Source of the DNA: Candidatus Bathyarchaeum tardum | GTDB taxonomy: Archaea > Thermoproteota > Bathyarchaeia > Bathyarchaeales > Bathyarchaeaceae | Assembly (NCBI GenBank): GCA_024650005.2 | Contig: CP122380.1 | Location: forward strand, 320,001 to 384,000 | Direction of reading: 5' to 3' | DNA: 64,000 bases | In this document: in pieces, positions 1 through 16,225 of the stretch | How the letters are laid out: each line of letters starts with the position of its first letter | Numbering within the stretch: position 1 is the stretch's first letter | Position numbers and translations under genes: made by a program | The notes under the pieces: generated by a model | What the model was told of the DNA's origin: nothing | The model's database searches: none | What the model saw: only the letters and a program-made list of their open reading frames with translations

Positions 1-1
1 G

Positions 2-430
2 GTCATTTTATCTGCATTGGGTGCAACAATCGCAATGGGTATGTCAGGTTTTGCTGGTTCGTACATGGCTGAAGAAGCAGAAAGTGCAAAAAAGCTTATC
101 ACTTTAGAAAAAATGATGTTAACCGAACTAAAAGACAGCGTAGTAGGCAAAGCTAACCGTTTTGCTTCCCTTTGGGCTGCATTAATTGGAGGAGGAGCTC
201 CTGCTTTAACTGGTGCAACATGTTTGTTGCCTTTTTTGTTTTCAGCTCACGGCATTGTTTCTGCTAGTCTAGCAATTCAAATGTCCATAGGCGTAGCTTT
301 GTGTATAATGTTCTTGTTAGGTGCCATTCTGGGAAAAATTTCCTGTCGAAACGTTGTTATCCATGGAGCAAAAATGTTAGCTGTTGGAGTTTTGTTGACT
401 CTTATCTTTTTTACGCTGAAACTAACATAG
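2..430 (+). CDS. VIT1/CCC1 family membrane protein (5' partial)
   Basis: Frame is open from the window start. The AMGMSGFAGSYMAEEAE motif and C-terminal TM helices are typical of VIT1/CCC1. Confidence 0.75.
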   Translation, partial: VILSALGATIAMGMSGFAGSYMAEEAESAKKLITLEKMMLTELKDSVVGKANRFASLWAALIGGGAPALTGATCLLPFLFSAHGIVSASLAIQMSIGVALCIMFLLGAILGKISCRNVVIHGAKMLAVGVLLTLIFFTLKLT

Positions 431-498
431 TGAATGACGTATGTCAAAGGTTATTAAGTGGTTTATAAGAGTCTAACTGGTCTGAAACAATAAACAAA

Positions 499-1638
499 TT
501 GATCTTATGGAGACAGAAATTGTTGGTTGGTCAAGAAATTCTTGAAGTTCTTTATTCGCCAGTTAAAGCATTCAAAAAAATCATAGAAAAGCCAGATTTC
601 AAAGGCGTTGCTGTTGTTTTGTTGCTTGTTATTGCTTCAGCAATAGCTGTGCAATATGTTGCTAGTTCTAAACAGTTTCTTGAATTACAGGTCCCAGAAG
701 ATGAAATCTGGACCGAAGAACTATTTAATCAACATGTTTGGACGTCTAACGGAGTGCTTTCTCGGGATGCCATTAATTATCAGGTTGGAAACAGCAGTAT
801 CCAGTCTGCAGTTACTGATTCAACTTTTTGGTTAAAGCTTACTGCCATTGAACCAATCAACTGTTCAGAAGGAACAGAATATACTGAACTTTTTTTCTGG
901 ATGAACTGGACCCATGATGCTGGTTCACGTCCAGTTTCTGGAACAATTAAACTGTTCTCTGGCAGCGAAGACAGTTACTTTGAACGAGACCTAGCAGTTC
1001 TAATTGGTTCAAACAATGAATGGTCAAACGTTACTTTGAGTATTGGTTCCGGTCAGGGTTGGGATTTAGTTAATTCTCCTGATTGGGAAAACATAACCGG
1101 TGTTGAGTTTGATCTAAATTGGGCTGATTCAGCAAACTTGAGCGTGAACGTTGACGCTCTGGTTTTTCGAACCTTTGCTTCATCTGTTCAGATGGGGACG
1201 GTTTACATTGAATTTATATCTACAATAATCCAAGCTGGAATGACATGGGTAGTTTGGGGTGGACTTTTAATTCTTGTTGCTAAACTTTTCAACGAAGACC
1301 TAGGAAAATGGAACGTGTTCTTCATAATCATCGGCTACGTTTTCATGGTAACAGTTGTCACTAATTTAATAACTGCTATTGTAGCAACAAATCTTCCTGA
1401 CTTGACCTATCTGTTGGATCCCACTTCCTCGTATTATTATGCTCGAAATGCAGAAGTTTGGGTTTCAAATTTGGGCTATCAGCTTTTGACTCCATTGCTT
1501 TGGGTCGGCTACATTTGGACAACAGGTCTTAGCGCCTTAGTAATTCATGAAATGAAAGAAATTCCTTGGGGAAAAGCTCTAACAATCGCTGTTATCGCTT
1601 TTGCTGCAAGACTGGTGCTTAGTGCTTTTGGTTTCTAA
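499..1638 (+). CDS. Yip1-domain membrane protein with an inserted extracytoplasmic beta-rich domain
   Basis: EVLYSPVKAFKKI start of Yip1, one TM, a ~170-aa Trp/Asn-rich soluble insert, then four TM helices. Confidence 0.65.
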   Translation: MILWRQKLLVGQEILEVLYSPVKAFKKIIEKPDFKGVAVVLLLVIASAIAVQYVASSKQFLELQVPEDEIWTEELFNQHVWTSNGVLSRDAINYQVGNSSIQSAVTDSTFWLKLTAIEPINCSEGTEYTELFFWMNWTHDAGSRPVSGTIKLFSGSEDSYFERDLAVLIGSNNEWSNVTLSIGSGQGWDLVNSPDWENITGVEFDLNWADSANLSVNVDALVFRTFASSVQMGTVYIEFISTIIQAGMTWVVWGGLLILVAKLFNEDLGKWNVFFIIIGYVFMVTVVTNLITAIVATNLPDLTYLLDPTSSYYYARNAEVWVSNLGYQLLTPLLWVGYIWTTGLSALVIHEMKEIPWGKALTIAVIAFAARLVLSAFGF

Positions 1639-1835
1639 AAGGCTAAATATCTGTTAAGTAAAGGGCACATCTTGGGTCATTTTGTGCTTTTTGCTTCCGT
1701 GCCCTTTTCTTTGTTGTTTGTGGCAAAACTTATATCGTCGTTAATGCTCCTTTGATTTCGCCAACAGAACCGAATAAGCACAAAATCATTTATTGATGTG
1801 TTGTTCATTTTAGTGGCAAAATAAAACGGAGGAAT

Positions 1836-2132
1836 ATGCCCTTGAAAATTAATGAACTAAGAGATGGAATGCGAAAAGTAGATGTTGAAGCAGACGTAGT
1901 CGAAAAATCAGATGTCCGCGAAGTTCGCTCACGATACACAAATGATACTTACCGTGTTGCTGACGCAACAATCGAAGACGAAACAGGCAAAATAACCCTG
2001 ACCCTATGGAACGAACAAACAGAACAAGTCAACGTTGGGGACCGTATCAAAATCGAAAACGGTTACATCAAATCTTTTAGAGATGTGCTTCAGCTCAACT
2101 CAGGAAAATATGGGACATTAACAGTCCTGTAA
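1836..2132 (+). CDS. ssb: Single-stranded DNA-binding protein (single OB fold)
   Basis: IEDETGKITLTLW OB-fold motif, 98 aa, GGAGG SD upstream. Confidence 0.85.
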   Translation: MPLKINELRDGMRKVDVEADVVEKSDVREVRSRYTNDTYRVADATIEDETGKITLTLWNEQTEQVNVGDRIKIENGYIKSFRDVLQLNSGKYGTLTVL

Positions 2133-2349
2133 ATCCCTACTTTTCTATCTAAAGATTTTGAACATTTAACTGTCCTATAAAATAGAGCAAACTTGAATTT
2201 TGTTTTTCAGGTTTTCTTTTCATATTTCTTTACTTTTTTAATCCCAAAAGAAAAACTGTTAAATCTTTGAATGAATGTTTTTCAGAAAATCATACCATTA
2301 GACTTAATGTTAATATTAAAGAGTAAATATTAACACAGAACAGCAATCC

Positions 2350-2425
2350 AGCCCGGTAGTGTAGTGGACAATCATGGAGGCCTTTGGAGCCTCTGACGGG
2401 AGTTCGAATCTCCCCCGGGCTACCA
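2350..2425 (+). tRNA. tRNA-Gln(TTG), intronless, CCA encoded
   Basis: Acceptor AGCCCGG/CCGGGCT, anticodon arm GAGGC-CTTTGGA-GCCTC, T-loop TTCGAAT. Confidence 0.95.
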
Positions 2426-2516
2426 TCTTCTAGACAATAATTTATACTTTTTAGCCGAGAGAAAATTCGCCTCATCTTCCCTCTTTTTTATTGTCTATCG
2501 TCTGGAGGTTTATTTT

Positions 2517-2639
2517 TTTAGTGAGCAGAAGATCTATTGTGAATGCTGTGGCAGCAAATGGGTTGTAATCGGCGTTGGTAATCAGATCTTAGCTATGCTT
2601 GATAAGTGCCCTTTATGTTCTGAAATAAAGTTGACTTGA
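2517..2639 (+). CDS. Putative ~40-aa zinc-ribbon microprotein (no canonical start; may be a pseudogene)
   Basis: SEQKIYCECCGSKW...DKCPLCSEIKLT*; GGAGG at 2504-2508, but TTT where the start codon is expected. Confidence 0.4.
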   Translation, partial: FSEQKIYCECCGSKWVVIGVGNQILAMLDKCPLCSEIKLT

Positions 2640-2821
2640 TTTTCTATAGAATTCTTCTATTTTAACTCGTAATAGAGAAAAAGACAGGTTCAACGTGTTA
2701 AACGAGTTAAACACGATTTTTTAACTCTAGCAGATGCAGTTCCTCTTACAAAGAAGGGCTTGCAGAAAAACAAACACCTAGCAAAGAGAATGCTCACTTT
2801 TTCTGGTCTAATCAAATCTAG

Positions 2822-3076
2822 GTGACCGTGTTGAAAGCTGATATGAAACGGGATACTTTCCGCAGAACCATTTTGGAATTTGTTGGTAAAGGCTGCGTCC
2901 ACTATACTGACTTGGGCAAGAAGGTGTGCTCCTCATGTCACCCCTTCGCTACCATAAACACCTTCAACTCGCAGCTCCGATACCTGCTGGACAGTCAATA
3001 CATTGAAAAAGTTGCCAGAGGCGTCTACCAGATAACAATCAGAGGCACACAATACCTGCATCTACTAACAGAATAG
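2822..3076 (+). CDS. Small winged-helix DNA-binding protein
   Basis: FNSQLRYLLDSQYIEKVARGVYQITIRG wHTH wing pattern. Confidence 0.7.
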   Translation: MTVLKADMKRDTFRRTILEFVGKGCVHYTDLGKKVCSSCHPFATINTFNSQLRYLLDSQYIEKVARGVYQITIRGTQYLHLLTE

Positions 3077-3095
3077 CACCCATTTCACGACTCTA

Positions 3096-3145
3096 GTCAA
3101 ATTTTCTTGACCAGTACCCAATAAAGTTGGTCAAGGTTTCTTGAC
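3096..3145 (+). promoter_or_regulatory. Tandem GTCAA-N6-TTGAC operators upstream of a BRE/TATA-like element (copy 1)
   Basis: Palindromes at 3096-3111 and 3130-3145, 34 bp apart; the element is duplicated at 12637-12686. Confidence 0.75.
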
Positions 3146-3193
3146 AAAAACCCTTTTTCATACAAATTAACGATACATAAACCTGATCACATA

Positions 3194-4480
3194 ATGAAGA
3201 AAATATCAATGCTTTCGTTATTGATTTTGCTTACTTTGATTAGCTCAGTATTTACTCCCTGTGGTAATGCTTCTTTGGAGTTGTGGAGCCAAACTTATGG
3301 TGGTGATAGTTATGAAACTGCTACTGTTGTTGTTGAAACTTCTGGGGATAATGGTTTGGCTATTGCAGGCGGCACAACCTCTTTTGGTTTTGGAGATGGT
3401 GAGTATGATTTTTGGTTAATCAAAACCAACAGTTACGGAGTTATGGAATGGAACCAAACCTACGGTAAAGAAGGTGACGATTACCCTTATTCACTAATCG
3501 AAACCGTTGATGGTGGATTTGCACTGGTTGGAAAAACAGGTGGAGGTGGGTCTTTTCTTGGTGATGATTATGATGTTTTGCTAATCAAAACAGACAAGTT
3601 CGGAAATGTGCAATGGAACAAAACTTTTGGGGGAACAAAAGGCGACAGCGGCAACTGTTTGATTCAAACCTCTGATGGAGGATTTGCTTTTGTTGGCTAC
3701 ACAGAATTAGACACAACAGGATGTGATTTTTGGCTGGTCAAGATTGACAGTGATGGAAACATACAATGGCAAAAAACTTACGCACTTGGAGTTAACAACT
3801 ACAATCGAGCAGGCTCATTAGTTGAACTTTCTGATGGCGGATATGTTATAGTGGGCACTGTTTCACCTTTTATGGGTGGAGGCGACAGTTGGTTCATTAA
3901 AGTTGACCAGTATGGCAATATGGTGTGGAATCAAACCTACAAAAACGGAAAACTTTTTTCAATAGTCAAGACCGTCGATGGTTTTGTTTTGGCAGGAGAT
4001 ACCCGAAGTTATGGCGCAAAGGGATTGGACGATTTTTGGTTACTTAAAACGGATGCTGTTGGAAATGTGGAATGGAATCAAACATTTGGTGGAGCTAGCA
4101 GTGATGTTAGTTCGGATTTAATCCAAACATTAGATGGTGGATTTGCTATAGCTGGTTATACTGAGTCTTTCGGTGAAGGCGCTAGAGATTTCTGGCTAAT
4201 AAAAACAGATGCAACTGGAAAGGCGGTTTGGAATCAAACGTATGGAGATTCTAGATATTGTGATGCTAATTCGTTAGTGCAAACTTTTGATGGCGGATTC
4301 GTGCTTGTTGGAGCAGTTAACTCAATTTCTCCTTCTTCTGATTGGTGGGTAATAAAAGCTGACATGCAAGGTATTCCAGAGTTTTCGTCATGGACACCCC
4401 TACTGATTATGCTAGTTGCTTTCTTGATTGTGGCGGTCATTTACAGACAAAAACTAAGCCAAAGGAGAGCGGAACAGTGA
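3194..4480 (+). CDS. Secreted beta-propeller repeat protein with PEF-CTERM-like sorting tail
   Basis: Signal peptide, repeated DFWLIKTD-G-EWNQTYGG blades, C-terminal IPEFSSW-TM-basic tail. Confidence 0.85.
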   Translation: MKKISMLSLLILLTLISSVFTPCGNASLELWSQTYGGDSYETATVVVETSGDNGLAIAGGTTSFGFGDGEYDFWLIKTNSYGVMEWNQTYGKEGDDYPYSLIETVDGGFALVGKTGGGGSFLGDDYDVLLIKTDKFGNVQWNKTFGGTKGDSGNCLIQTSDGGFAFVGYTELDTTGCDFWLVKIDSDGNIQWQKTYALGVNNYNRAGSLVELSDGGYVIVGTVSPFMGGGDSWFIKVDQYGNMVWNQTYKNGKLFSIVKTVDGFVLAGDTRSYGAKGLDDFWLLKTDAVGNVEWNQTFGGASSDVSSDLIQTLDGGFAIAGYTESFGEGARDFWLIKTDATGKAVWNQTYGDSRYCDANSLVQTFDGGFVLVGAVNSISPSSDWWVIKADMQGIPEFSSWTPLLIMLVAFLIVAVIYRQKLSQRRAEQ

Positions 4481-5508
4481 AACGGTCTGCTTCTTTGCTT
4501 GCTCTGTTGCTGTTTCTTTCTGTTGTTCTGCCCGCTTTTTCAACCCCTTTAGTATGGGCAGCTGAGGATTCTTGGACAACCTTGGAGCCGATGCCTACGG
4601 AGAGAGCTTGGCTTGGGGTTGCTGTTGTAGACGGGAAGATATACGCAATAGTTGACACAATTAATTACGAGTATGATCCATCAACAAACTCGTGGACTAC
4701 AAAGACGCCAATGCCAACCCCAAGGAATGGTTTTGGAATAGCTGTGGTTGAAAATAAAATATACGTTATAGGTGGAGGGACTGTAATAAACGAAGCATAT
4801 GATCCCACAACAGATACATGGGAAACTAAAGCTCCAATGAATATTGCAAGAAGCGGGTTATCTGCAAGCGTTATAAATGGAAAAATCTATTGCATAGGAG
4901 GGAATAGGGGCGAACCCACCTATTCTGGAGTTTCTGCAACTGAGGTTTATGATCCATCAACAGACACTTGGACTACCGCACATCAAATACCAACTCCTGT
5001 TACTGGTCATGTTTCCGCGGTTGTCAATAACAAAATTTACATAATCGGTGGTGCAATTGGTGTTACTCTCAATCAAATTTATGACCTTGAAACTGACGCA
5101 TGGAGCACCGGAGCCCCATTACCTACGGGCGTGGACTCTGCAGCTGCGGGTGTAACCGCCGGAACCACAGGCACACAAAGAATTTTTGTAATAGGTGGGA
5201 AACAGAATCTCGACGCCGTAAAATTGAATCAGGTCTATGATCCAGAAACAGATACGTGGGTTTATGGTCCTGCAATGCCGACTGCCCGTTATAGTTTAGG
5301 TGTTGCAGTCGTAAACGATAGTATATATGCAATTGGGGGACGCGAAGGCTGGTTTGGATCTCCCGTCTCCGCAGCAAACGAAAAATACACACCAGCCGAT
5401 TTCATCCCAGAGTTTCCCTCATTGTCAATATTAGTTGCTGGGGTATCAGTTGTTTTGATTTTATCAGTATTTTTTAGGCAGAAAATTAAGAAAGGAAGGA
5501 AAACATGA
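4477..5508 (+). CDS. Kelch-repeat surface protein, PEF-CTERM-like
   Basis: GTG start overlapping the upstream TGA, Kelch GKIYxIGG...YDP...W repeats, IPEFPSL-TM tail. Confidence 0.85.
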   Translation: MKRSASLLALLLFLSVVLPAFSTPLVWAAEDSWTTLEPMPTERAWLGVAVVDGKIYAIVDTINYEYDPSTNSWTTKTPMPTPRNGFGIAVVENKIYVIGGGTVINEAYDPTTDTWETKAPMNIARSGLSASVINGKIYCIGGNRGEPTYSGVSATEVYDPSTDTWTTAHQIPTPVTGHVSAVVNNKIYIIGGAIGVTLNQIYDLETDAWSTGAPLPTGVDSAAAGVTAGTTGTQRIFVIGGKQNLDAVKLNQVYDPETDTWVYGPAMPTARYSLGVAVVNDSIYAIGGREGWFGSPVSAANEKYTPADFIPEFPSLSILVAGVSVVLILSVFFRQKIKKGRKT

Positions 5509-6476
5509 ACAAAATCAAACCATTATTTTCTGTTTTTCTGATTTCCTTCCTTGTTTTGGCATCTATTCCTCAGATTAAAGTAGTGAAGGCACAGGGCAAT
5601 ACGATTTACATTAGAGCTGATGGAACAGTTGAGGGAACAGATAAGCTTCAACGGGATGGGAATGTATATACTTTTAGAGATAACATTAATGCTGAAATTA
5701 CAGTTGAGATTGATGATATTGTAATTGATGGAGCAGATTATAGTCTTCAGGGAAATGGAGACGGTGTGGGAATACATGTTCCTAACAATGGTAATCTGGA
5801 AATAAAGAATACCAAAATACAGGGTTTCAAATTTGCTATTTACTTTGATTACTATTCTAAGAACAGTAACATCATTTCTGGCAATACTTTGACAAATAAC
5901 ACCCATGGTATCTACATCTATTCAAGTAATAACCATATTTTTGGGAACTACATAGAGGACAGTGGAACAGGGATACGACTGGTAGAATCTTATAACAATA
6001 CAATTTTTCAAAACAAAATAGTTGGAAATGAAGCAGGAATCGGTTTTGGTAGTGGAGGTGGATACAGCACTATATTTCATAATTTGATAGCAGACAACGA
6101 TTATGCCTTCACATTTTGGGCAAATTCACAAAATATCATCTACGGAAACAATCTAATTAACAACACAAATCAAGTGCATGTTTGGAGTTCATCAAATAAC
6201 TGGGATTATGAGTCAACGGGAAATTATTGGAGCGACTACAACGGCACAGACAGCAACGGAGATGGAATCGGTGACACACCCTATGTGATTAGCACCTCTC
6301 CTGAAGATTATGGAGATGCTGACAACTGCCCATTAATGAAACCAGTTAACGATGCTATAATCCCAGAGTTTCCCTCATGGACACCAATGCTGATTATGTT
6401 ATGTGCAGTTTTAGCCATGGCGGTCGCTTACAGACGAAGACTACATGAACAGAACCAAAGGAGAGCGGATCAGTGA
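5505..6476 (+). CDS. NosD/CASH right-handed beta-helix surface protein, PEF-CTERM-like
   Basis: Asn/Ile-rich repeats, GNYWSDYNGTDSNGDGIGDTPY motif, IPEFPSW tail. Confidence 0.85.
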   Translation: MNKIKPLFSVFLISFLVLASIPQIKVVKAQGNTIYIRADGTVEGTDKLQRDGNVYTFRDNINAEITVEIDDIVIDGADYSLQGNGDGVGIHVPNNGNLEIKNTKIQGFKFAIYFDYYSKNSNIISGNTLTNNTHGIYIYSSNNHIFGNYIEDSGTGIRLVESYNNTIFQNKIVGNEAGIGFGSGGGYSTIFHNLIADNDYAFTFWANSQNIIYGNNLINNTNQVHVWSSSNNWDYESTGNYWSDYNGTDSNGDGIGDTPYVISTSPEDYGDADNCPLMKPVNDAIIPEFPSWTPMLIMLCAVLAMAVAYRRRLHEQNQRRADQ

Positions 6477-7597
6477 AACGATCTGCAAGTCTGCTTGTTC
6501 TGTTGTTGCTTCTTTCTTTGCTTCTGCCTTTTTTGTTAACACCTTTAGTTAGGGCTGCTGAGGATTCTTGGCTTTCAAAAGCATCTATGAACGAAACCAG
6601 AGCATATCTAGGAGCTGAAGTTGTTAATGGAAAAATCTATGCTATTGGAGGCGACCAAGGGTCACTAATTGGAAACGCCATGAATTCAGTAGGAATGACT
6701 CAACAAACCACAAATGCTACTGAGGAATACAATCCCAGCTTAGACAAATGGACAATAAAGTCTCCGATGCCAACTGCTAGAGCACGTTTTGGAACTGCAG
6801 TATACCAAAACAAAATTTATTGTATAGGAGGATATACCGCCACTTTCGATGGTGGAACCAACTACTTTGACCTAGAGGCAAATGAAGTCTATAATCCAAT
6901 TAATGATACTTGGGAAAGTAAGACACCTTTACCAACCCCTAGACATTCCCCAACAACAAATATGGTTAACGGAAAAATCTATGTCATAGGCGGATACTCG
7001 ATTACTACACACTCCATACTGAATGTAGCCGAAGTCTATGATCCAACCAGTAATACGTGGGAAACAATATCTCCGCCTCCTCTGGAAGTCGGAAGCAGTG
7101 CCTCGGCAGTTATTGACAACAAAATATACGCCTTAGGACAAAATTCAAGTGCCTGGGAAACTTTCATTCAAGTTTATGATCCTTTGACTGACAAATGGAA
7201 CATTAAAGGGTATACACCTGTGAGTGCTTTTGCAAGTGCTGTTGTAACAAGTGGTTTGAGTGCTCCAGAGAGGATTTACTTTTTTGATGAGAACAGAACG
7301 GACGTTTACAATCCCACCGACGATAGTTGGGTAGAAGGTACTCCAGCACCAACGAATCGACCTGTTGCTGCTGTCGCTGTTATTGATGATTTAATTTATC
7401 TTGTTGGTGGACGTACTGGACAATGGGGCTATATGACTTTCATGTATCCCAGCGCTCTATGTGAACAATACTTACCAATCGGCTATATTCCAGAGTTTCC
7501 CTCGTGGACACCCCTACTGAGTACTCTAGTTGCTGTCCTGGTGGTAGCGGCTATTTACCGGCGAAGACTAGCCAATAATCATGGGATGATAGAATAG
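6473..7597 (+). CDS. Kelch-repeat surface protein, PEF-CTERM-like
   Basis: Signal peptide, Kelch repeats, IPEFPSW-TM-RRR tail. Confidence 0.85.
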   Translation: MKRSASLLVLLLLLSLLLPFLLTPLVRAAEDSWLSKASMNETRAYLGAEVVNGKIYAIGGDQGSLIGNAMNSVGMTQQTTNATEEYNPSLDKWTIKSPMPTARARFGTAVYQNKIYCIGGYTATFDGGTNYFDLEANEVYNPINDTWESKTPLPTPRHSPTTNMVNGKIYVIGGYSITTHSILNVAEVYDPTSNTWETISPPPLEVGSSASAVIDNKIYALGQNSSAWETFIQVYDPLTDKWNIKGYTPVSAFASAVVTSGLSAPERIYFFDENRTDVYNPTDDSWVEGTPAPTNRPVAAVAVIDDLIYLVGGRTGQWGYMTFMYPSALCEQYLPIGYIPEFPSWTPLLSTLVAVLVVAAIYRRRLANNHGMIE

Positions 7598-8706
7598 TGA
7601 AAAAATCTGCAATCTTGCTTGCTTTATTGCTGTTTCTTTCTGTTCTTCTTCCAACTTTATCAACACCTTTAGTTTGGGCAACTGAGGATTGGTGGACAAC
7701 AATGGAGCCTATGCCGACTAATAGAAGTAGCTTGGGAGTTGCTGTTGTGAATGGTAAAATCTACGCAATTGGAGGCGTCCAAAGTGACATTAATGAAGAG
7801 TACGATCCGGCAAAAAACAGCTGGACAACCAAAATGCCTATGCCAACCGCAAGAGGAGATTTTGCTATAGTCGTTCTTCAAGATAGAATATATGCAATTG
7901 GGGGATTGACCAGATCAGGACAATGGACTGCTGAACTTACAGGCGTAAATGAAGTCTACGACCCGGCAACAGACTCATGGGCAACAAAAAAGTCAATTCC
8001 CGTACCCAAAGCTGGTTTATCAGCAAATGTCGTAGAGGGTAAAATCTATCTAATCGGTGGATTTACTCAACTAGCAAATAGTACTGTCAAAACAACAAGC
8101 GACGAAACCCTTGTTTATGATCCTATCGATGATTCTTGGACTACAAAAACGCCAATCCCCACTGCGACATTAGATTATGCCACAGCAGTTGTTGACGACA
8201 AAATCTATGTAATCTCGGGAACTTCACGTGCCTATAGCGATAGTCTAGTAAATCCAACTCAAATTTACGACCCAAAAACAGATACGTGGAGTCAAGGCGC
8301 TCCAATTCCTTATCCCATACAACAGGCTGCTGCAGGCGCAACAACGGGACTTGGAGCACCCAAAGGAATCTATGTCATAGGTGGATTCACTGGCTTTTAT
8401 TGGTCCACAAACAAAAATCAAGTATACGATCCAGAAAAGGACACATGGAGTTCAGGAGCTGATATGATCACACCATCATTTGGTTTAGATGCGACCGTTG
8501 TGGACGACCAACTTTACGCAATAGGGGGTTGCCCCGGCTATTTACAGGGATCAACAGCAACAGTAGAAAAATATACTCCAGCAGACTATATTCCAGAGTT
8601 TCCCTCCTGGACACCCCTACTTATCACATTGGTTGCAGTGGTAGCGGTAGCAGTTGTTTACAGACATGATCTACACAAACAAAACCAAAGGAGTGAGAAC
8701 CAGTGA
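7597..8706 (+). CDS. Kelch-repeat surface protein, PEF-CTERM-like
   Basis: Signal peptide, Kelch repeats, IPEFPSW tail. Confidence 0.85.
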   Translation: MKKSAILLALLLFLSVLLPTLSTPLVWATEDWWTTMEPMPTNRSSLGVAVVNGKIYAIGGVQSDINEEYDPAKNSWTTKMPMPTARGDFAIVVLQDRIYAIGGLTRSGQWTAELTGVNEVYDPATDSWATKKSIPVPKAGLSANVVEGKIYLIGGFTQLANSTVKTTSDETLVYDPIDDSWTTKTPIPTATLDYATAVVDDKIYVISGTSRAYSDSLVNPTQIYDPKTDTWSQGAPIPYPIQQAAAGATTGLGAPKGIYVIGGFTGFYWSTNKNQVYDPEKDTWSSGADMITPSFGLDATVVDDQLYAIGGCPGYLQGSTATVEKYTPADYIPEFPSWTPLLITLVAVVAVAVVYRHDLHKQNQRSENQ

Positions 8707-9764
8707 AAAAGTCTACGTGTTTGTTTGCTCTGTTGCTGTTTCTTTCTTTGGTTCTGCCTTTTTTGTCAACACCTTTAGTTAGGGCTGTTGAGGATTCTTG
8801 GACAACTTTAGAGCCTATGCCTATTAGTTGTTCAAGAGTTGCTGTTGTAAAAGAGAAAATTTACACGATTGGAAATAGTGGCATTGCAGAGTATGACACT
8901 GCTTCAGACTCATGGACATTAAAGAATCCGATGCCGGCTAACAGAAGCGGTTTTGCAGTAGCTGTTTATGAAAATAAAATTTACATTATAGGTGGAAGCA
9001 ACGGATTAAATCAAATCTATGATCCAGCAACTGAAACATGGGAAAATAGAACTACAATGCTTACTCCCAGAATACAGTTAGAAGCAAACGTTGTTAATAG
9101 CAAAATCTATTTAATTGGGGGAAAAACTGGTGGTCAATATTCCACTGTAGCTTTGAATGAAGTTTATGATCCTGCCACTGACACATGGACTGCAAAAGAG
9201 CCAATGCCATTTCCTGTTGCACAATATGCCTCTGCAGTAGTTGGTGACAAAATCTATGTCTTTGGTGGTCAAGATGAATACCAATTGCCTAATCCAAACT
9301 TGAATGTAACCCAAATATATGATACTATAACAGACACTTGGAGTTTTGGAGCGCCACTTCCCTATGTGGTGTGGAAAGCAGCTGCAGGAGCAACAACTGG
9401 ACAAATGGCTCCCCAAAGAATCTATATTATGGGTGGATTGCCAGAAGGGAGTCTTTTTGGTACAGATTTAAATCAGATTTATGATCCAGAAACTAATGCT
9501 TGGAGTTTAGGTTCTACTATGCCTATTGCCCGTGCTGGGTTGCATGTTGCGGTTGTAAACGATGTGATATACTCAATGGGAGGAGTACCTTACATCAATG
9601 TTCAAGCAACATGGATCCCAGAAAATTACCGATACACACCAATAGATTACATCTCAGAGTTTCCCTCATGGACAATCCTACTGATCGTATTGGTTGCAGT
9701 GTTGGTTGTGGCAGTTGTTTACAGAGTAAAATTGGACAAACAGAATCGGGGGGAAGATAAATAG
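8703..9764 (+). CDS. Kelch-repeat surface protein, variant ISEFPSW tail
   Basis: Signal peptide and Kelch repeats; the sorting motif has Pro>Ser (TCA at 9654). Confidence 0.85.
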   Translation: MKKSTCLFALLLFLSLVLPFLSTPLVRAVEDSWTTLEPMPISCSRVAVVKEKIYTIGNSGIAEYDTASDSWTLKNPMPANRSGFAVAVYENKIYIIGGSNGLNQIYDPATETWENRTTMLTPRIQLEANVVNSKIYLIGGKTGGQYSTVALNEVYDPATDTWTAKEPMPFPVAQYASAVVGDKIYVFGGQDEYQLPNPNLNVTQIYDTITDTWSFGAPLPYVVWKAAAGATTGQMAPQRIYIMGGLPEGSLFGTDLNQIYDPETNAWSLGSTMPIARAGLHVAVVNDVIYSMGGVPYINVQATWIPENYRYTPIDYISEFPSWTILLIVLVAVLVVAVVYRVKLDKQNRGEDK

Positions 9765-10961
9765 GTGAAAAAATCCGCATCTGGTCTTGTTCTGTTACTG
9801 TTGATTTTCTCTGTTCTGGTTACATCTCCACAAATTGAGGTTGTGAAAGCTGATCAGAAGATGATTGTTGTTCCCGATGAGTATGCTTCTATTCAAGAGG
9901 CTATTGATAATGCTGGCGAGGGCGACACTGTGTTAGTAAAAAGAGGAACCTATTATAATCAAACAATAAGTATAAACAAATCATTATCACTCATCGGCGA
10001 AGACAGCCAAACTACAATACTAAAGAGTAGCCCAGAAACAACCTCATTTATGCTACCTAATATCACAAGTGTTGTGGAAGTGAAAGCTGACAACGTTAGA
10101 ATCTCCGGTTTCACTATTGACCACTATGATCGAGGCATTTCTGGGATTGGAAATGAGACCCAGATAATTGGTAATATTTTCACAGCCAATTGGGATCATA
10201 CTAGCATAAACGTGTTCGGTTCATACATTGAAATTGCCAACAACAGGATATATGGAGGCAGAAGCAACACTGGCATCCACATAGGTGGCTCCTACAACAC
10301 CATTAATGACAACGAAATTGTTGGAACAAGTGATGGCATACGCCTGTGGGGTTATTCAGGCACAGTTTCAGGAAACGAACTTGCCGATAGCGATCACAGC
10401 ATATACGTGAGCGGTAATTTGCACGCAATAACCCAAAACAACATTGTTGGCGGTGAAATAGGTCTCGCATTAATCTGTTCAGGATGCGTTATCTCTGGAA
10501 ATAATATAACAGAACAAACCGAACGAGCCATATGGGTAGACAATACTGCTAAAGATAACGTTATTCGGGGGAACCTCCTAGCACCCAATCAGGGATTCGC
10601 CGTCTATCTTACAGTTTTAACTGGCATAGAGGGTCCTGTTAACAACACATTCTATCATAACGATATAATTGGCAACGGTCACAACATTCGGTTAACTGGT
10701 TACAATCAATGGACTTTTTGGGACTCTGGGTATCCTTCTGGCGGTAACTTCTGGAGTGACTATAATGGAATAGACAAGGATGGGGATGGAATAGGCGACA
10801 CCCCCTACATCATTAACGAACACAACCAAGACAACTACCCACTAACGGAACCAGTTATTATCCCAGAGTTTCCCTCAGGGACAATTCTGCCGTTACTTAT
10901 TGCTGCAACTTTGGTTGGTGTCACTGTCAGAAATAAAATTAGAAAGAATGGGATGGAATGA
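9765..10961 (+). CDS. NosD/pectin-lyase-like beta-helix surface protein, PEF-CTERM-like
   Basis: VPDEYASIQEAID...GDTVLVKRGTY start, GNFWSDYNG.D.DGDGIGDTPY motif, IPEFPSG tail. Confidence 0.85.
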   Translation: MKKSASGLVLLLLIFSVLVTSPQIEVVKADQKMIVVPDEYASIQEAIDNAGEGDTVLVKRGTYYNQTISINKSLSLIGEDSQTTILKSSPETTSFMLPNITSVVEVKADNVRISGFTIDHYDRGISGIGNETQIIGNIFTANWDHTSINVFGSYIEIANNRIYGGRSNTGIHIGGSYNTINDNEIVGTSDGIRLWGYSGTVSGNELADSDHSIYVSGNLHAITQNNIVGGEIGLALICSGCVISGNNITEQTERAIWVDNTAKDNVIRGNLLAPNQGFAVYLTVLTGIEGPVNNTFYHNDIIGNGHNIRLTGYNQWTFWDSGYPSGGNFWSDYNGIDKDGDGIGDTPYIINEHNQDNYPLTEPVIIPEFPSGTILPLLIAATLVGVTVRNKIRKNGME

Positions 10962-11953
10962 AAAAGACCTCTTCTTGCGTTTTGATTATGCTTCTTTGTT
11001 TTGTTGTAGTTCCTTTTCTACAACTTGGAGTTGTGCGGGCAGAGGGCACAATCTACATCAAAGAAGATGGAACGGTTGAGGGGACAGATAAGATTCAACA
11101 AATTGGAAATGTCTATACTTTTATTGGAAATATTTCGGTTGGGATTCAGGTTCAAAGGAGCGACATTATCGTTGATGGAATGTGGTTTACTTTGCAGGGA
11201 GATGGAGAAATTCATGGACCTACAGATATTAGTGGAATGGGAATAGAACTTGTTGGATGCAAAAATGTTACAATACGAAATTTTAACATCACACAATTCA
11301 CAAGAGGTATTCGATTCACCAATTCTTCTGACTGCATTGTACATCACAACCTTATAGTTAACAATTCTATAGGCATTGAAATGGGCTATGAACCTTGTTA
11401 TTCAAATAATAACACAGTAAGTGGAAACATAATAAAAGGAAATCACAATGCGGGAATTCGATTAATCTGTGGTTCATCAAATACTATTTCTGGAAATATT
11501 ATAGTAGAAAACGATGAAGGCATCTCTATTTGGGGAACAGCTGGAAATACAATCGCATGGAACAACATTACTAACAACAAAAGAGGTATTTACGTAGAAA
11601 CTTCTGGAATTAACCTTATTCACCACAACAATTTTGTTGATAACACAAACGATTCGTGGGATTATGGTTATACTCCTTGGCCATTTCAGTTACCTTTTTC
11701 AGAAAACATTTGGGATGATGGTAAAGAGGGAAACTATTGGGGTACATATAATGGCACAGACAATAACATGGATGGTATAGGAGATACCCCTCATGTACTT
11801 TACGAGAATAACACCGACAACTTTCCACTTATGCAACCAGCAGAACTACCAATAGAAATTCCAGAGTTTCGTTCTTGGACAATTCTGCCAATATTGATAA
11901 TGGCTACTTTGACAATAATACTAGCAAAAAAGAGGATGCATATATTACATTAA
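10958..11953 (+). CDS. NosD/CASH beta-helix surface protein, PEF-CTERM-like
   Basis: TIYIKEDGTVEGTDKI N-terminus shared with the 5505 paralog; IPEFRSW tail. Confidence 0.85.
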   Translation: MKKTSSCVLIMLLCFVVVPFLQLGVVRAEGTIYIKEDGTVEGTDKIQQIGNVYTFIGNISVGIQVQRSDIIVDGMWFTLQGDGEIHGPTDISGMGIELVGCKNVTIRNFNITQFTRGIRFTNSSDCIVHHNLIVNNSIGIEMGYEPCYSNNNTVSGNIIKGNHNAGIRLICGSSNTISGNIIVENDEGISIWGTAGNTIAWNNITNNKRGIYVETSGINLIHHNNFVDNTNDSWDYGYTPWPFQLPFSENIWDDGKEGNYWGTYNGTDNNMDGIGDTPHVLYENNTDNFPLMQPAELPIEIPEFRSWTILPILIMATLTIILAKKRMHILH

Positions 11954-11991
11954 TACTCAAAATTCTAAAAATTGTATTTGGGGGTTATCTT

Positions 11992-12528
11992 GTGAACAAG
12001 AAATTTGCAGTTTTCATGGTTTGTGCAATTTTAGTCATTTTTGGTGCGTTATTAATTGCTAATATACACTCGAATAATAGAGATATTTCATGGATTAATG
12101 AAGTTGAGAATTTAATTAAAAAAGAGAATTGGGAAGCTTACAGTAAATATTATCCTATGGCGGATTGGTCATTTTTCATTTATGAAAACGGAGAAAGCCA
12201 ATATTTCTTCTTAAACCCCAACGATGAGTTAATCTCTCAAATTAATAAAATAATGGACAGAATTGATAAGCAAATTGAAGAATCCATTTCACACGAGTCC
12301 TTTGATGAAATATTGGCTACAGACAAGGTTTTAGCAGTTGTTCATAGATTTCCCACTAAGAGTAATTTTTGGAACTCTCCGAACAATTTTGGTAATAATG
12401 TTGATTATGACAAAGCTTACTTTGTTTTGGAAGATAAACTAGAAGAAGATTATAAAGGGACCATAATAGTCCGAGAGCATAGTATGGGAGAAGAAGACTA
12501 CAAATATAGTGTTTGGCAAATAACTTAA
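11992..12528 (+). CDS. Hypothetical protein with N-terminal membrane anchor
   Basis: Likely GTG start after a GGGGG SD-like run; one N-terminal TM. Confidence 0.6.
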   Translation: MNKKFAVFMVCAILVIFGALLIANIHSNNRDISWINEVENLIKKENWEAYSKYYPMADWSFFIYENGESQYFFLNPNDELISQINKIMDRIDKQIEESISHESFDEILATDKVLAVVHRFPTKSNFWNSPNNFGNNVDYDKAYFVLEDKLEEDYKGTIIVREHSMGEEDYKYSVWQIT

Positions 12529-12636
12529 TTTTCTTTTGTAAGAAATTTCATTTGTTCTTTCAGAGTTTACCTTATAGATTCTCACCTGCAAGGTGATATC
12601 TCCCGCACATCGACTTTTTTACTTATTTTATTGTTG

Positions 12637-12686
12637 GTCAAATTTTCTTGACTGTGAAGGCCTTTAGTTGGTCAAGGTTTCTTGAC
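12637..12686 (+). promoter_or_regulatory. Tandem GTCAA-N6-TTGAC operators (copy 2)
   Basis: Same two 16-mers and the same 34-bp spacing as 3096-3145. Confidence 0.75.
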
Positions 12687-12723
12687 AAAAAACCTTTTCA
12701 TAACTTTTATAGACAATTAATTT

Positions 12724-13761
12724 ATGGTGTATGTTTTGGCAAAACATAAGCAAGCTTTCTTTTCATTAACGATTTGCTGTTTGTTATTTTTAATATTGCC
12801 TTTTAATTTTGAAGTTAAAGGTTCTGAGTGCATTTTTTTTGAAGATGATTTTGAGGGCTATTATGTTAATGCTTTTCCTTCTCAAAATTGGAATCTTCGA
12901 TTTAATGGTGCATGTTTTGATATGCAGGTTATTCAAAATGACACGGATGTTTCATCTTCTAAATATTTACAATTAGTTTCACAAGTTACCTGGGCTGCAC
13001 GTGCTATGATTCCAATACCTTCTGAAGCTAGATTTGTAGGTTTTGAAGTTAGAGCTCTGTTAGCTGAAGCTAATGGCCAATATGTTCATGGAGCTAGGGC
13101 TGGTTTTTCTGAATATGGCAGTTCATTGGCTGCTAATTGGCATGCTCATGTTTGTCTTTATAATAATGGAGAGATTGGAGCAGCAAACGGTTCCCCCTTA
13201 GGTATTTATGACGTTGGGAACTGGACGAAAATTAGGTTATTGTTAGATAGGGACCTTAACATTTATTCAGTCTGGATAGATGATGAATTAAAGATTGAAA
13301 ATAAGGTTTTTCCAGCAGACCCTTATCTTTATAATTATTTTTCATTAGAATCAACATATCATTTGAATAACAAAGCTTACTTTGATGATGTTAAACTCTT
13401 CACATTATATGATGCAAATCCCAGACTTGATTTACAGCCTACGGAAGGAGTGTCTCAAACCACAATTCATGGTTCAGGATTTGCACCAAATTCTGAAATA
13501 ACTGTGACATGGAACGAAACTAGAATGTATACCATTCCTAATCTTGTTCAAACTGATGGTTATGGTAATTTTTCTGCAATGATTTCAGTATTAAATCAAA
13601 CCCAAACTGGTTCATATCCAATAACTGCTATTGACGAGATGGAAAACCAAGCAACTTCAACTTTCAACGTTATTCCAGAATTTCCTTCCTATTTTGTTTT
13701 GCCCTTGGTTGTTGCTGTGTTGTTGGGGGCAAGGGTTTACCGGAAGAGGCTAACCAAGTAA
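12724..13761 (+). CDS. Secreted ConA-like plus Ig-like domain protein, PEF-CTERM-like
   Basis: FEDDFE...YFDDVKL beta-sandwich, Ig-like IHGSGFAPNSEITVTW, IPEFPSY-TM-RKR tail. Confidence 0.75.
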   Translation: MVYVLAKHKQAFFSLTICCLLFLILPFNFEVKGSECIFFEDDFEGYYVNAFPSQNWNLRFNGACFDMQVIQNDTDVSSSKYLQLVSQVTWAARAMIPIPSEARFVGFEVRALLAEANGQYVHGARAGFSEYGSSLAANWHAHVCLYNNGEIGAANGSPLGIYDVGNWTKIRLLLDRDLNIYSVWIDDELKIENKVFPADPYLYNYFSLESTYHLNNKAYFDDVKLFTLYDANPRLDLQPTEGVSQTTIHGSGFAPNSEITVTWNETRMYTIPNLVQTDGYGNFSAMISVLNQTQTGSYPITAIDEMENQATSTFNVIPEFPSYFVLPLVVAVLLGARVYRKRLTK

Positions 13762-13894
13762 AACTCAAATTATGTGTCTAATTACGATGTATTTTGTTCA
13801 AAGTTCTTTTAACGATGTTTTTTTAAAACGGTTCGTTTTTCATCAATTTTTTCGACAAAATAGCTTAAATTAAGCTTATTTATCGTTTTAAGGT

Positions 13895-14113
13895 ATGGAA
13901 AGCGGTTCAATACTTGCCTTAATCACGACTATTCTTTCTATTGTTTCAGTATTTTTTGGGGCAAAATACCGGAAATGGCTAGAGAGGGGTAGACTATTCG
14001 CAAAGCTTTTTGATGACATTGTTGCTGCTGCCGAGGACAATGAGATCTTAGAAGAGGAGTTTCAAAAGATTGTAGCTGACGCCAAAAAGGTTGCCGCCAA
14101 AATGGAGGAGTGA
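13895..14113 (+). CDS. Small single-TM hypothetical protein (element backbone)
   Basis: 72 aa; N-terminal TM followed by a charged helical tail. Confidence 0.6.
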   Translation: MESGSILALITTILSIVSVFFGAKYRKWLERGRLFAKLFDDIVAAAEDNEILEEEFQKIVADAKKVAAKMEE

Positions 14114-14116
14114 CCT

Positions 14117-14623
14117 TTGAACTGGAAATTTCTGTTAGCTGCTGTTTTTGTTTGTGGTCTACTTTTTGGTGCGGTTTCTTATGCCGCAGTATCAAATATT
14201 GTCAAAATCCGTAATGTGGGAACCATCAGGGCAGTCGGCGTTGAAGTATACGCTGACGAACTTTTGGAGCAAATCTTGAACGAGGTCAGCTGGGGCACAT
14301 TAAACCCTGGAGAGAACAAGTCTGCAACCGCCTGGATAAAAAACACCGGCAACGATGCCCAGAAGCTTATACTTTGGACTGAAGGCTGGGAACCTGTAGA
14401 AGCCCAGAACTCCATCATTCTAACTTGGAACTACAATAACGAGTGGATTGAAGCAGGGTCTGCGATTCCGGTAACTTTCACGCTAACTGTAGATTCAAAC
14501 ATCTCTGGCGTGGAAAGCTTCTGTTTTGACATGTGGATCAAGGGGGTTTCCACTTATCCGAAATCAACAATCCAGACTAGTGCTACCCATATCTACAGCA
14601 GAAGTGCATCAGCTTGTTCATAA
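14117..14623 (+). CDS. Secreted Ig-like hypothetical protein; 3' end probably fused to integrase DNA by a deletion
   Basis: Signal peptide and WGTLNPGE...IKNTGN motif; the last ~25 codons overlap the integrase remnant in another frame. Confidence 0.6.
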   Translation: MNWKFLLAAVFVCGLLFGAVSYAAVSNIVKIRNVGTIRAVGVEVYADELLEQILNEVSWGTLNPGENKSATAWIKNTGNDAQKLILWTEGWEPVEAQNSIILTWNYNNEWIEAGSAIPVTFTLTVDSNISGVESFCFDMWIKGVSTYPKSTIQTSATHIYSRSASACS

Positions 14624-15056
14624 AATGTATGTGAAAGCAAACATGATTACTAAAAATCCCCTAGGACGCCGATACGACATTCGAGCTCACAGTTTACGCA
14701 AATATTTCAGAACACAAATAGCTGCTTTAGGCGTTGACAGAGACTACATCGAATATATGCTGGGGCACACCATAAGCACTTATCACGACATCAAAATGAA
14801 AGGCATCGAATTTCTAAGGGGAGTCTACGCTGCATCAGGCTTGTCAATAAGACCAAAAACACGAGTAAGCAAAATAGACGCTCTAAAAGAGATCATACGT
14901 GCATGGGGACTAAATCCAGAAGAGATCCTAACAAAAAATGCTTTAACACAACCTCATAGAACCGTAATCAACAGAGAACAAGCAGAACAAAATCAGATCC
15001 ATCACCTAAGCATTGCCCTAAAAAACCATTTGCTAACAGAAATGCGAGAGAAATAA
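14526..15056 (+). pseudogene. Tyrosine recombinase/integrase, C-terminal fragment
   Basis: HSLRKYF (HxxR), MLGH and downstream Tyr (STYHD) are present; the N-terminal domain and first catalytic Arg are absent. Confidence 0.85.
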
Positions 15057-15099
15057 AATATGACCGAAATGGATAACTCAAGCCGTAGACATGAGATAA

Positions 15100-15122
15100 C
15101 CCTGGGCTACCATTTTCTAGAC
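15100..15122 (+). repeat. att repeat of the tRNA-Gln 3' end
   Basis: CCCTGGGCTACCATTTTCTAGAC vs CCCCGGGCTACCATCTTCTAGAC at 2413-2435. Confidence 0.85.
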
Positions 15123-15378
15123 TAGTTTTAATCCTTGTTTTGGGTGAATTTTATTCTTTGGCATTTGATACGTTTCCCAAAGGTCAAGGGACATAATTTT
15201 TTATCTTTAAGTTAGCTGTAATTTCATAGTTTGTTTAGTTTTGTTGTTTGCCTGAAAAAAATGTTTGAACAACAACATTCCATGATTTTTACATTTTTTG
15301 CTCAGATTCATTGAGCAATTTTGAAAACTGTTTAGAATAAGGGAAAAATAATAAAATGGCTCCATGTAATGTCATGAC

Positions 15379-16149
15379 TCAAAAAGGTGGTTCCGAAGCA
15401 ATTGACTTCCATAGTTTTTCTGCGTAATTTTCTTGTGCATCTGTTCCTGTAACTGCGAGGAGATAACTTCCTTCTGCTCCGTAAACGCCTCCTGCTGCAA
15501 TCAGTTCTGCGTTGGCGCCTGTCAATTGTTGTATTGCTTCGATTTCGGTGAACAATTGACCTGGAACAAGAACCATGCGATAACCATTTGCATCTGGTGA
15601 ATTTAGTTTTTCAGTTAAGGTGTACAGATCATTGTTAACTCTTTTTTCTAGTCCAACTGGGACTATCAATTTCACGCGGCGACCTGCCACAGCTTGCATA
15701 ATCAAGGCAATTGTTCCTGCTTTTGGGTGTCCAATCAGTACGGCTGCTTGTTTTTGATTCATGTTCAGTGCGTTTGCCCCTTTTAAAATCACGTCGCCCT
15801 CTTTTAGGGCATCTGCTACATCTTCGATGGTTTTTCCTTTTTGCCATACGCCATCAGTTATAATTACATCGCCTGGAAACTTGCTCTCATCAACCAATCT
15901 ACCCTCTGCTGTCACTGCACCCCCTGGTGGCAGAGTAATTCCTCGGAAAAAGTTTGTTTTGGAAAAGCCTTTAAAATCTAGATATTTAATAATTTCTTCA
16001 GCGACGTATCCGTTTGTGGTTCCAGCAACTATGACAAGTGTCCCCTTCTTAAGGGCAGTCAAGATTGTTGGATTTTTTGCTAAGGCTTTAGCAATTAATC
16101 GTTTTCCGGCAACGGGTGTAATTAGAAACTGTTTCATTATTAACTCCAT
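15379..16149 (-). CDS. Conserved hypothetical protein (alpha/beta, Gly-rich)
   Basis: 256-aa ORF with [17 protein letters not shown] and VPVGLEK motifs. Confidence 0.75.
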
Positions 16150-16225
16150 TTAGTTATTATGCATCATAAAATTAAAAGTTTAACTCTTAAGATTTCTATC
16201 ACTTTTGAATTTTTAAATTTTAAAT

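Follow-up and report, generated by a model that had tools for sequence, protein, structure and literature searches.

Positions 3194-13761 of a 64,000-nucleotide (nt) stretch of the Candidatus Bathyarchaeum tardum genome, hereafter the window, contain an array of nine genes (A1-A9) encoding secreted Kelch, NosD-type beta-helix or propeller proteins. The ends of these genes, namely the C-terminal tail of one gene together with the ribosome-binding site and signal peptide of the next, have a different history from the cores that they enclose, and several junctions are mosaic. We therefore propose that the gene ends are probably subject to general homologous recombination or gene conversion, separately from the cores. 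The window corresponds to C1:320001-384000 of the single 2.15-Mb contig of this genome (our handle G000). The label C1 is used in two ways: with coordinates it denotes this contig, and as gene C1 it denotes a gene of a second array, array C.

According to the open reading frame (ORF) listing and direct reading, A1-A8 abut or overlap by 0-4 nt and A9 stands apart after a gap (Table 1). Start and stop codons meet as GTGA at 4477, ATGA at 5505, GTGA at 6473, TAGTG at 7595-7599, GTGA at 8703, TAG-GTG at 9762-9767, and ATGA at 10958. Pfam and NCBIfam scans assign A2, A4, A5, and A6 to Kelch and A3, A7, and A8 to NosD/beta-helix proteins, and give no Pfam family match for A1 or A9. A1 is a PQQ_2/SBBP-like propeller according to the Atlas, which we treat as a lead only. 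All nine products end, at the extreme C-terminus, in a tripartite tail consisting of the motif I-[P/S]-E-F (SEF in A6), a helix of about 20 hydrophobic residues, and a basic cluster. Such a tail is borne by some 37-38 ORFs genome-wide. Comparison of the region with the genome by blastn revealed two more arrays, both on the minus strand: B (C1:1329459-1336652) and C (C1:1448521-1451887). A first-pass annotation of the window had recognised the nine-gene array, its junction types, and its PEF-like tails, all of which are borne out by the ORF listing and direct reading.

Each junction block is about 215 nt long. Gene i contributes its tail, within whose last codons the ribosome-binding site AAGGAG is written, and gene i+1 contributes its start codon and signal peptide. 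In an alignment of the six junctions that precede Kelch genes, mean pairwise identity is 0.3-0.5 before the PEF codons, 0.74-0.84 from PEF to SWTPLL, 0.57-0.73 in the helix and basic end, 0.72-0.84 from AAGGAG to the EDSW codons, a span that includes the start codon and signal peptide, and about 0.5 in the core. The first-pass annotation had singled out two matches between junctions, 30 of 32 nt (4459-4490 and 6455-6486) and 59 of 62 nt (6510-6571 and 8740-8801), and both counts are correct. It had also described the two Kelch cores beside the second match, those of A4 and A6, as divergent, and they are only 52.6% identical as DNA and 38% as protein. J1 is 86.5% identical over 230 nt to the C1/C2 junction (C1:1450901-1451130), the preceding gene being a propeller in one case (A1) and a beta-helix in the other (gene C1). 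J2 is 85.2% identical to the B3/B4 junction (C1:1333254-1333550), J5 is 84% identical over its full length to a junction of array B, and J7 is 81% identical to G002:C19:3200-3340, where the sequence lies behind a Kelch core in another genome of the genus. One junction stretch is exact over 40 of 40 nt. Tails of the alpha type (n = 7) occur on three core families and are followed by a Kelch gene in six of seven cases, while those of the beta type (n = 3) all occur on Kelch cores and are followed by an MNKIK-type beta-helix gene in two of three. The tail type thus tracks the downstream gene and not its own core.

RNA structure was considered as the cause of junction conservation and rejected, as RNAalifold on five junctions returned a covariation term of -0.12 and any compensatory change in just 5 of 54 pairs. 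Single junction folds likewise gave no sign of a conserved fold (z -0.75 and -0.87), and an Rfam scan of 1-17000 returned nothing besides tRNA.

Codon use separates the signal peptides from the cores. Six Kelch genes with the common signal type were compared as 14 pooled pairs, which are not independent of one another; the A5-B3 pair and B2, which has a different signal, were left out. Identical residues are encoded by the same codon at 250 of 331 positions in the signal (75.5%) and at 740 of 1629 in the core (45.4%), with ranges for single pairs of 62-91% and 39-58%, respectively. With this codon usage, saturation seems to lie at about 45%, and between orthologous cores of different species 70-86% of identical residues share their codon. 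The cores are thus far older than the blocks, whose age is roughly that of the species of the genus. Protein identity between the signals is only 75%, which points to a young block and not to a tightly constrained one. Further, Kelch genes elsewhere in the genome carry other signal peptides, so the common signal is not demanded by the fold.

The clearest conflict between core and tail involves A5 and B3, a gene of array B about 1 Mb away. The two share an identical tract of 828 nt, extending to 867 of 869 nt when counted from 7733, whose right end is the last base of CCAGAGTTT, the codons of the PEF motif. To the right of the tract identity collapses (59 of 90 nt with gaps), while to the left it decays stepwise through 83, 72, and 58 of 90 nt. 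The cores of A5 and B3 are 99.3% identical as DNA and their tails 52%; the tail of A5 is instead 82.5% identical to that of B2, and the tail of B3 85.3% identical to that of A2. A junction between a common core and unlike tails therefore exists exactly at the PEF motif, and the tract is the product of one very recent exchange. In the public sequencing run X1 the tract forms a single contig at a depth of 425, compared with about 217-229 in its neighbours, a difference that two genuine identical copies would produce.

Other junctions are composites of shorter pieces. The first part of J5 resembles the B2/B3 junction (91 of 98 nt identical from 8650), while its last 62 nt are those of the 59/62 match to J3. 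The signal peptide of A7 begins as the K type and continues as the beta-helix type, and its DNA likeness to K-type junctions stops at 9818. Triplet maximum chi-square tests gave p < 0.05 in 20 of 60 cases, the best result being reached in 0 of 2000 permutations. After correction for the 60 tests one survives, that of C1/C2, with a breakpoint just past the PEF region. Junctions make up 17% of all positions of the three arrays, yet they contain the centres of 63 of the 113 exact segments of at least 14 nt that the arrays have in common, 29 of 44 of at least 18 nt, and 10 of 15 of at least 25 nt. In a tree of 16 junction blocks only one of 13 inner branches is supported, that joining the blocks of A1 and gene C1 (97/96).

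Comparison with other genomes of the genus, given here by handles such as G008, separates the ends from the cores in the same way. The core of A4 is 82.5% identical to its orthologue in G008 and 63% to its best paralogue; the values are reversed for the signal (65.6% against 85.4% in A6) and the tail (58% against 74% in A1), and the ends of the G008 gene are unrelated despite the shared core. For A6 the core is 86.5% identical to the orthologue in G008 and 68% to the best paralogue, while the tail is 62% and 73% identical, respectively. The core of A8 is 84.5% identical to the orthologue in G012 and 64% to the best paralogue. The pattern of concerted evolution, in which one segment is nearer to a paralogue and the rest nearer to the orthologue, is therefore seen in the signal and tail of A4 and the tail of A6. 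J5 has five other full-length matches in this genome, at 73-84% identity, and none above 71% in the 24 further genomes compared; a match of any kind is found in 16 of the 25 genomes of the genus. G007 has an A3-like core behind an A7-like signal, its A3-like gene being 88% identical only in the C-terminal half, and G002 has an A2-like core with an A7-like tail (86.9%). The content and order of array genes vary among congeners. None of the three conditions that the first-pass annotation named as refuting its reading holds: similarity at synonymous sites in the block far exceeds that in the core, the relationships of tails and cores disagree (A5 and B3 have one core with a B2-like and an A2-like tail), and gene content and order differ between relatives.

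The motif codons themselves are unusually uniform. On the + strand of the window CCAGAGTTT occurs at only seven places (4376, 5407, 6363, 7490, 8593, 10863, and 11861), exactly those named in the first-pass annotation, and on the opposite strand once, at 49793. The count of seven among nine genes stands, but the meaning attached to it, that of a clue specific to the array, does not: CCAGAGTTT is found in 23 of the 38 PEF tails genome-wide, and in 11 of 23 outside the three arrays, so it is favoured throughout the genome. Only 4 of 42 PEF tripeptides that are not part of a tail use it. The phenylalanine codon of the tails is TTT in all 38, and the glutamate codon is GAG in 26 of 38, even though 83% of glutamate codons are GAA; unlike the PEF codons, the isoleucine codon before them varies freely. 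CCAGAGTTT is also used in five of eight tails in an unselected 400 kb of another species (G022:C1:1-400000), and in 38 of 50 tails at the relatives' loci, a figure biased by the fact that these loci were fetched by similarity. Codon fixation in the motif at synonymous sites goes well beyond codon or codon-pair usage. It may reflect selection on the nucleotides or pervasive conversion among all tails.

In the mechanism we propose, the eight translationally coupled genes would form an operon-like row, and A9 would be served by its own copy of the upstream palindromes described below. Each protein would carry, behind a Sec signal peptide, a passenger domain of the binding type and a C-terminal tail of IPEF motif, helix, and basic end. 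The block is presumably the only stretch still alike enough among paralogues for general homologous recombination. Repeated short-tract gene conversion and unequal crossing-over would keep the blocks alike within the genome and mosaic, while the cores would diverge and retain their orthologues in other species. Exchanges starting or ending in blocks could move, duplicate, or delete whole cores in register, both between positions of one array and among the three arrays of the genome. With gene ends passing between paralogues, recombination would bring together binding domains of unrelated folds in frame. We infer co-transcription of the row, RadA-type recombination as the agent, and a benefit from surface variation.

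Several observations weigh against recombination of the gene ends. The A5/B3 tract stops where homology stops, so the role of the tail as a recombination arm is not proven by it. A within-genome clade of the six copies in the block tree is neither supported nor rejected (p-AU 0.44), and one block of G007 lies close to these six copies. In the orthologue comparisons the swap of ends could lie in the other species, the start codon of the A8 orthologue is uncertain, and the tail of A8 is marginal, being 63.4% identical to the orthologue and 65.7% to the best paralogue. Conservation of the block is also partly functional, as it contains a sorting motif, a helix, a ribosome-binding site, a start codon, and a signal peptide. 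Finally, the over-use of CCAGAGTTT throughout the genome and in another species points to a force at the nucleotide level that acts on the motif besides local exchange.

These functions are the basis of an alternative in which plain tandem duplication was followed by divergence and the ends remained alike through constraint on tail, ribosome-binding site, and signal, with no continuing exchange. That every element of the block has a known function, that AAGGAG lies inside the last tail codons, that the PEF codons are fixed genome-wide, and that the block tree gives no within-genome clade would all be accounted for. Constraint on the protein does not, however, explain why the block far exceeds the core in synonymous similarity when a quarter of signal residues differ, why core and tail relationships conflict, or why orthologous cores have non-orthologous ends. 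Kelch genes elsewhere also manage with other signals, and an identical 828-nt tract joins loci 1 Mb apart, so we regard this alternative as unlikely. An artefact of assembly or polishing, in which collapsed or homogenised repeats produced the identical tract and the mosaic junctions, is barely credible. Short-read contigs do break at J1 and J5, and many congener contigs end in such arrays, but the genome is a single 2.15-Mb contig, the tract has twice the depth of its neighbours in run X1, a contig of 2683 nt crosses J2-J4 without a difference, and mosaic patterns recur in independent genomes.

The first-pass annotation had framed the array as an integron-like system without a dedicated recombinase. 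A stricter alternative would be a dedicated cassette system, with a site-specific recombinase acting at the PEF codons and moving promoterless cassettes between operons. The array genes do resemble the cassettes of an integron in being units of the same orientation without promoters of their own, placed behind a common promoter region, with content that varies between relatives. The excess of CCAGAGTTT in tails here and in another species, the uniform TTT and preferred GAG codons, and the one exchange that ends exactly at the motif could also be read as traces of such a site. There is, however, no IntI, no attI, and no attC-like structure; no inverted repeat or fold stands out at the junctions. 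Breakpoints are not confined to one site but also occur at 7733-7774 in a core, inside the signal (J5 and A7), and past TGGACACC in gene C1, and the only recombinase gene of the surrounding island is a truncated integrase, a fragment of about 150 residues at its border. We consider a dedicated cassette system very unlikely and have dropped the integron-like framing. The other part of the proposal, that the block of tail, ribosome-binding site, and signal recombines apart from the cores, is upheld by codon use, core/tail conflicts, and mosaicism. General recombination of the gene ends could also be taken one step further, with the junction as a selected, register-preserving recombination module whose CCAGAGTTT codons are fixed across the genus and through which promoterless cores of unrelated folds would be shuffled between operons, gained, or lost. 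This is a rather doubtful extension; if true, it would provide archaeosortase substrates with a homology-based counterpart of the integron whose turnover should be visible between co-occurring strains.

The array is best filed with cases of concerted evolution and chimera formation among surface-protein genes with conserved ends. In the babA and babB genes of Helicobacter pylori, the ends are more alike within a genome than between the orthologues of different strains, the middles diverge, and conversion produces chimeras. These are unlinked single genes without a junction of sorting tail and signal, whereas the genes described here form an overlapping array. In msp2 of Anaplasma and pilE/pilS of Neisseria, conserved flanks provide the homology for RecA-type replacement of a variable core. 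Those systems have one expression site, silent donors, and high-frequency switching, whereas here every copy is a complete gene. A tandem arrangement of sortase substrates is known from the mrp-emm-enn genes of the mga regulon in group A Streptococcus. According to the available part of one report, recombination between these neighbours has given a chimeric emm-enn fusion (PMC6321872), and the available part of another describes the evolution of M and M-like proteins as 'promiscuous' (PMC9993116). As far as these excerpts go, the likeness consists of adjacent surface-protein genes with conserved signal and anchor ends and variable middles, and the differences are that the streptococcal genes are bacterial, encode LPXTG proteins handled by sortase A, and each have expression signals of their own. 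Further, in the array described here the genes overlap, the common unit reaches from one gene into the next, and the passenger folds are unrelated.

What is new is the occurrence of such exchange in Archaea and on archaeosortase-type tails, an exchanged unit that spans the gene boundary in a putative overlapping operon, passenger cores of unrelated folds, and fixed motif codons. Judged by title and abstract beginning, none of the PEF-CTERM/archaeosortase papers listed deals with recombination, and nothing on Bathyarchaeia with archaeosortase, Kelch, or surface proteins was found in the literature searched. Bathyarchaeia are among the most abundant archaea of sediments, and to our knowledge almost nothing is known of their cell surface. 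The genome described here encodes a single, unclassified archaeosortase and some 38 proteins that end in an uncatalogued IPEF tail, and a common palindrome pair recurs upstream.

Two sorting systems of this kind, PEF-CTERM/archaeosortase C and PEFG-CTERM/thaumarchaeosortase, were reportedly described by Haft et al. in 2012. When the tails are scanned alone with TIGR03024 (cut-off 23 bits), A1 passes at 23.9 bits, A3 reaches 21.6, and eight of nine match at E <= 0.4, one of the nine thus passing; a scan of whole proteins lists A1 only, at 18.4 bits. TIGR04296 gives weak matches to two of nine tails (15.3 and 13 bits), under its cut-off of 25. As stated in the first-pass annotation, no archaeosortase gene is present in the 64-kb window. 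The search for a cognate enzyme that it suggested found one elsewhere, at C1:1249085-1250104 (L001 1324-2343), 925 kb off and adjoining fhcD, and this is the sole exosortase-family gene of the genome. The protein passes the superfamily models TIGR04178 (48.7 bits against 23) and Pfam PF09721 (41.4 against 25.7), but falls below the cut-offs of the thaumarchaeosortase model TIGR04297 (107.8 of 250 bits) and the archaeosortase C model TIGR03762 (26 bits, cut-off 100). Relatives of the enzyme, 59-74% identical, come from 17 records whose titles name Bathyarchaeia, Bathyarchaeota, or Ca. Bathyarchaeum. Judged by these scores, the enzyme appears to represent an unnamed subfamily. With only the tail of A1 at the TIGR03024 cut-off and the enzyme under the subfamily cut-offs, this is a PEF-like system to which no curated NCBIfam subfamily model extends at its cut-off. 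The array tails are presumably cut and anchored by this single archaeosortase. Shared with the two named systems, as far as the available part of the source describes them (PMC5244752), are the tripartite tail, many substrates per genome, and one exosortase-family enzyme; the differences are the enzyme's position under both subfamily cut-offs and the single tail in nine that reaches that of TIGR03024.

Upstream of both A1 and A9 lies a pair of GTCAA-N6-TTGAC palindromes, and the two regions are 80.6% identical (12637-12702 against 3096-3162). The genome contains 42 copies of this palindrome versus about 3.4 expected, while other spacings occur 1-8 times. They are mostly paired, 34-45 nt apart, with a consensus of about GTCAAGAAACNTTGAC, and for 25 of the 42 an ORF with a PEF tail follows within 400 nt downstream. 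B1 and gene C1 are also preceded by such pairs. A2-A8 have no upstream palindromes of their own, which fits a single transcript for the series, and A9 is probably a separate transcription unit. The palindromes look like the operator of a surface-protein regulon. A winged-helix-like protein of 84 amino acids (aa) encoded upstream of the first pair is a candidate regulator; two paralogues are encoded in the genome, one at C1:1328379-1328600, about 860 nt downstream of array B, and the other at C1:635226-635468.

Contigs of four public sequencing runs were compared with 1500-16500, a comparison in which the contigs hide starts, ends, and rare variants. The 2683-nt contig mentioned above spans 5121-7803 with zero differences. 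Paralogous loci within the genome best account for most contig joints, whose sides measure 21-43 nt; the joint of 4419 to 8641, for example, fits the B2/B3 junction. Neither an excised circle nor a clean deletion joint could be established in these contigs, and runs X3 and X5 contain only parts from relatives. In run X2, a second sample of the same study, a contig covering 8752-14163 (A6-A9) has a depth of 86, against 3300-4400 for the contigs on either side. Branching occurs in the A6 signal peptide and at 14136, with no bridging contig seen. This is no more than a hint of strain-level polymorphism in array content, as contig depths cannot rank the parts of a locus. The array is a concrete and testable case of diversification of archaeal surface proteins via recombination, with a hint of strain polymorphism in samples already available.

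Contigs of congeners often end inside such arrays (loci L005, L007, L008, L009, L010, and L011), as short-read assemblies break at the common junction blocks. Array content in metagenome-assembled genomes is therefore probably under-reported. For annotators and assemblers, the arrays call for caution on two counts: they break short-read assemblies, and the gene ends do not report orthology.

The whole array lies inside a 12.7-kb tRNA-Gln island (2350-15122) bordered by att-like direct repeats. The truncated integrase adjoins the right repeat and has a full-length paralogue of about 500 aa at C1:943549-945063. The island is absent from G010 and G004, in which the tRNA abuts the orthologue of 15378-16139; nine other genomes of the genus are not resolved at this tRNA. 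At the same tRNA G009 (L004) has the integrase in the same truncated form, together with 5.7 kb of other cargo that includes an ABC transporter and an ArsR-like gene. Comparison of the five non-array ORFs of the island with PHROGs revealed no virus hallmark genes, only the integrase fragment and a weak match of the regulator.

Table 1. Features of the tRNA-Gln island and its surface-protein array, in window coordinates
Feature	Position	Strand	Basis
tRNA-Gln (anticodon TTG), left island border	2350..2425	+	ARAGORN; Rfam tRNA 61.4 bits
attL-like direct repeat, tRNA 3' end + 10 nt	2414..2435		20/22 match to 15101-15122
84-aa winged-helix-like protein, upstream of palindromes	2822..3076	+	Weak Pfam and PHROG helix-turn-helix matches only
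Pair of GTCAA-N6-TTGAC palindromes, 34 nt apart, upstream of A1	3096..3145		Sequence search
A1, secreted beta-propeller, 52-aa repeats, IPEF tail of alpha type	3194..4480	+	ORF, direct reading
J1, A1 tail, AAGGAG, GTG start, A2 signal	4373..4575	+	Alignment
A2, Kelch propeller, K-type signal, beta-type tail	4477..5508	+	Pfam Kelch_1 7.9e-43
J2, A2 beta-type tail, A3 signal and N-terminus	5380..5676	+	blastn
A3, NosD-type beta-helix, MNKIK signal, alpha-type tail	5505..6476	+	Pfam NosD 1.5e-24
J3, A3 tail and A4 signal	6360..6571	+	Alignment
A4, Kelch propeller, K-type signal, alpha-type tail	6473..7597	+	Pfam
J4, A4 tail and A5 signal	7487..7695	+	Alignment
A5, Kelch propeller, K-type signal, alpha-type tail	7597..8706	+	Pfam
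828-nt tract identical to C1:1333515-1334342 (array B)	7774..8601	+	Alignment
J5, A5 tail and A6 signal, mosaic	8590..8801	+	Alignment
A6, Kelch propeller, K-type signal, alpha-type tail (SEF)	8703..9764	+	Pfam
J6, A6 tail and first 18 codons of A7	9651..9818	+	blastn
A7, NosD-type beta-helix, hybrid signal	9765..10961	+	Pfam
J7, A7 tail and start of A8	10860..11000	+	Sequence comparison
A8, NosD-type beta-helix, last of overlapping series	10958..11953	+	Pfam
Membrane-anchored ORF between A8 and A9, start codon uncertain	11992..12528	+	ORF listing
Second GTCAA-N6-TTGAC pair, upstream of A9	12637..12686		Sequence search
A9, secreted, unknown N-domain, Ig-like domain, IPEF tail	12724..13761	+	ORF listing
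72-aa ORF in island	13895..14113	+	No family (PHROGs)
168-aa secreted ORF without PEF tail, in island	14117..14623	+	No family (Pfam, NCBIfam, PHROGs)
Truncated tyrosine integrase, last ~150 residues	14526..15056	+	Pfam Phage_integrase 24 bits (cut-off 27.1); PHROG integrase
attR-like direct repeat, right island border	15101..15122		20/22 match to 2414-2435

Just inside the island, 2472-2766 looks non-coding and is 85% identical to a repeat at C1:924027-924326 that is also present in several congeners. It resembles a small zinc-ribbon gene, but the zinc-ribbon-like frame has no in-frame start codon. The ORF between A8 and A9 lacks a PEF tail, has a paralogue at C1:1673417-1673854 (67% identical), and matches no family in Pfam, NCBIfam, or PHROGs. 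The Ig-like domain of A9 matches GxPGS at 25.3 bits, below the cut-off, and a weak structural resemblance of the protein to a carbohydrate-binding-like (CBM-like) jelly roll (TM 0.47-0.55) is a lead only. For A2 an alternative start at an in-frame ATG at 4390, inside the preceding tail, was dropped as it is not conserved at other junctions. A further overlapping pair of Kelch genes is present at C1:777475-779992; the first has an IPEF tail, and the junction and signal type differ from those of the array. The cores of this pair are the closest paralogues of A2 (about 70%), yet they have no signal-peptide DNA in common with it.

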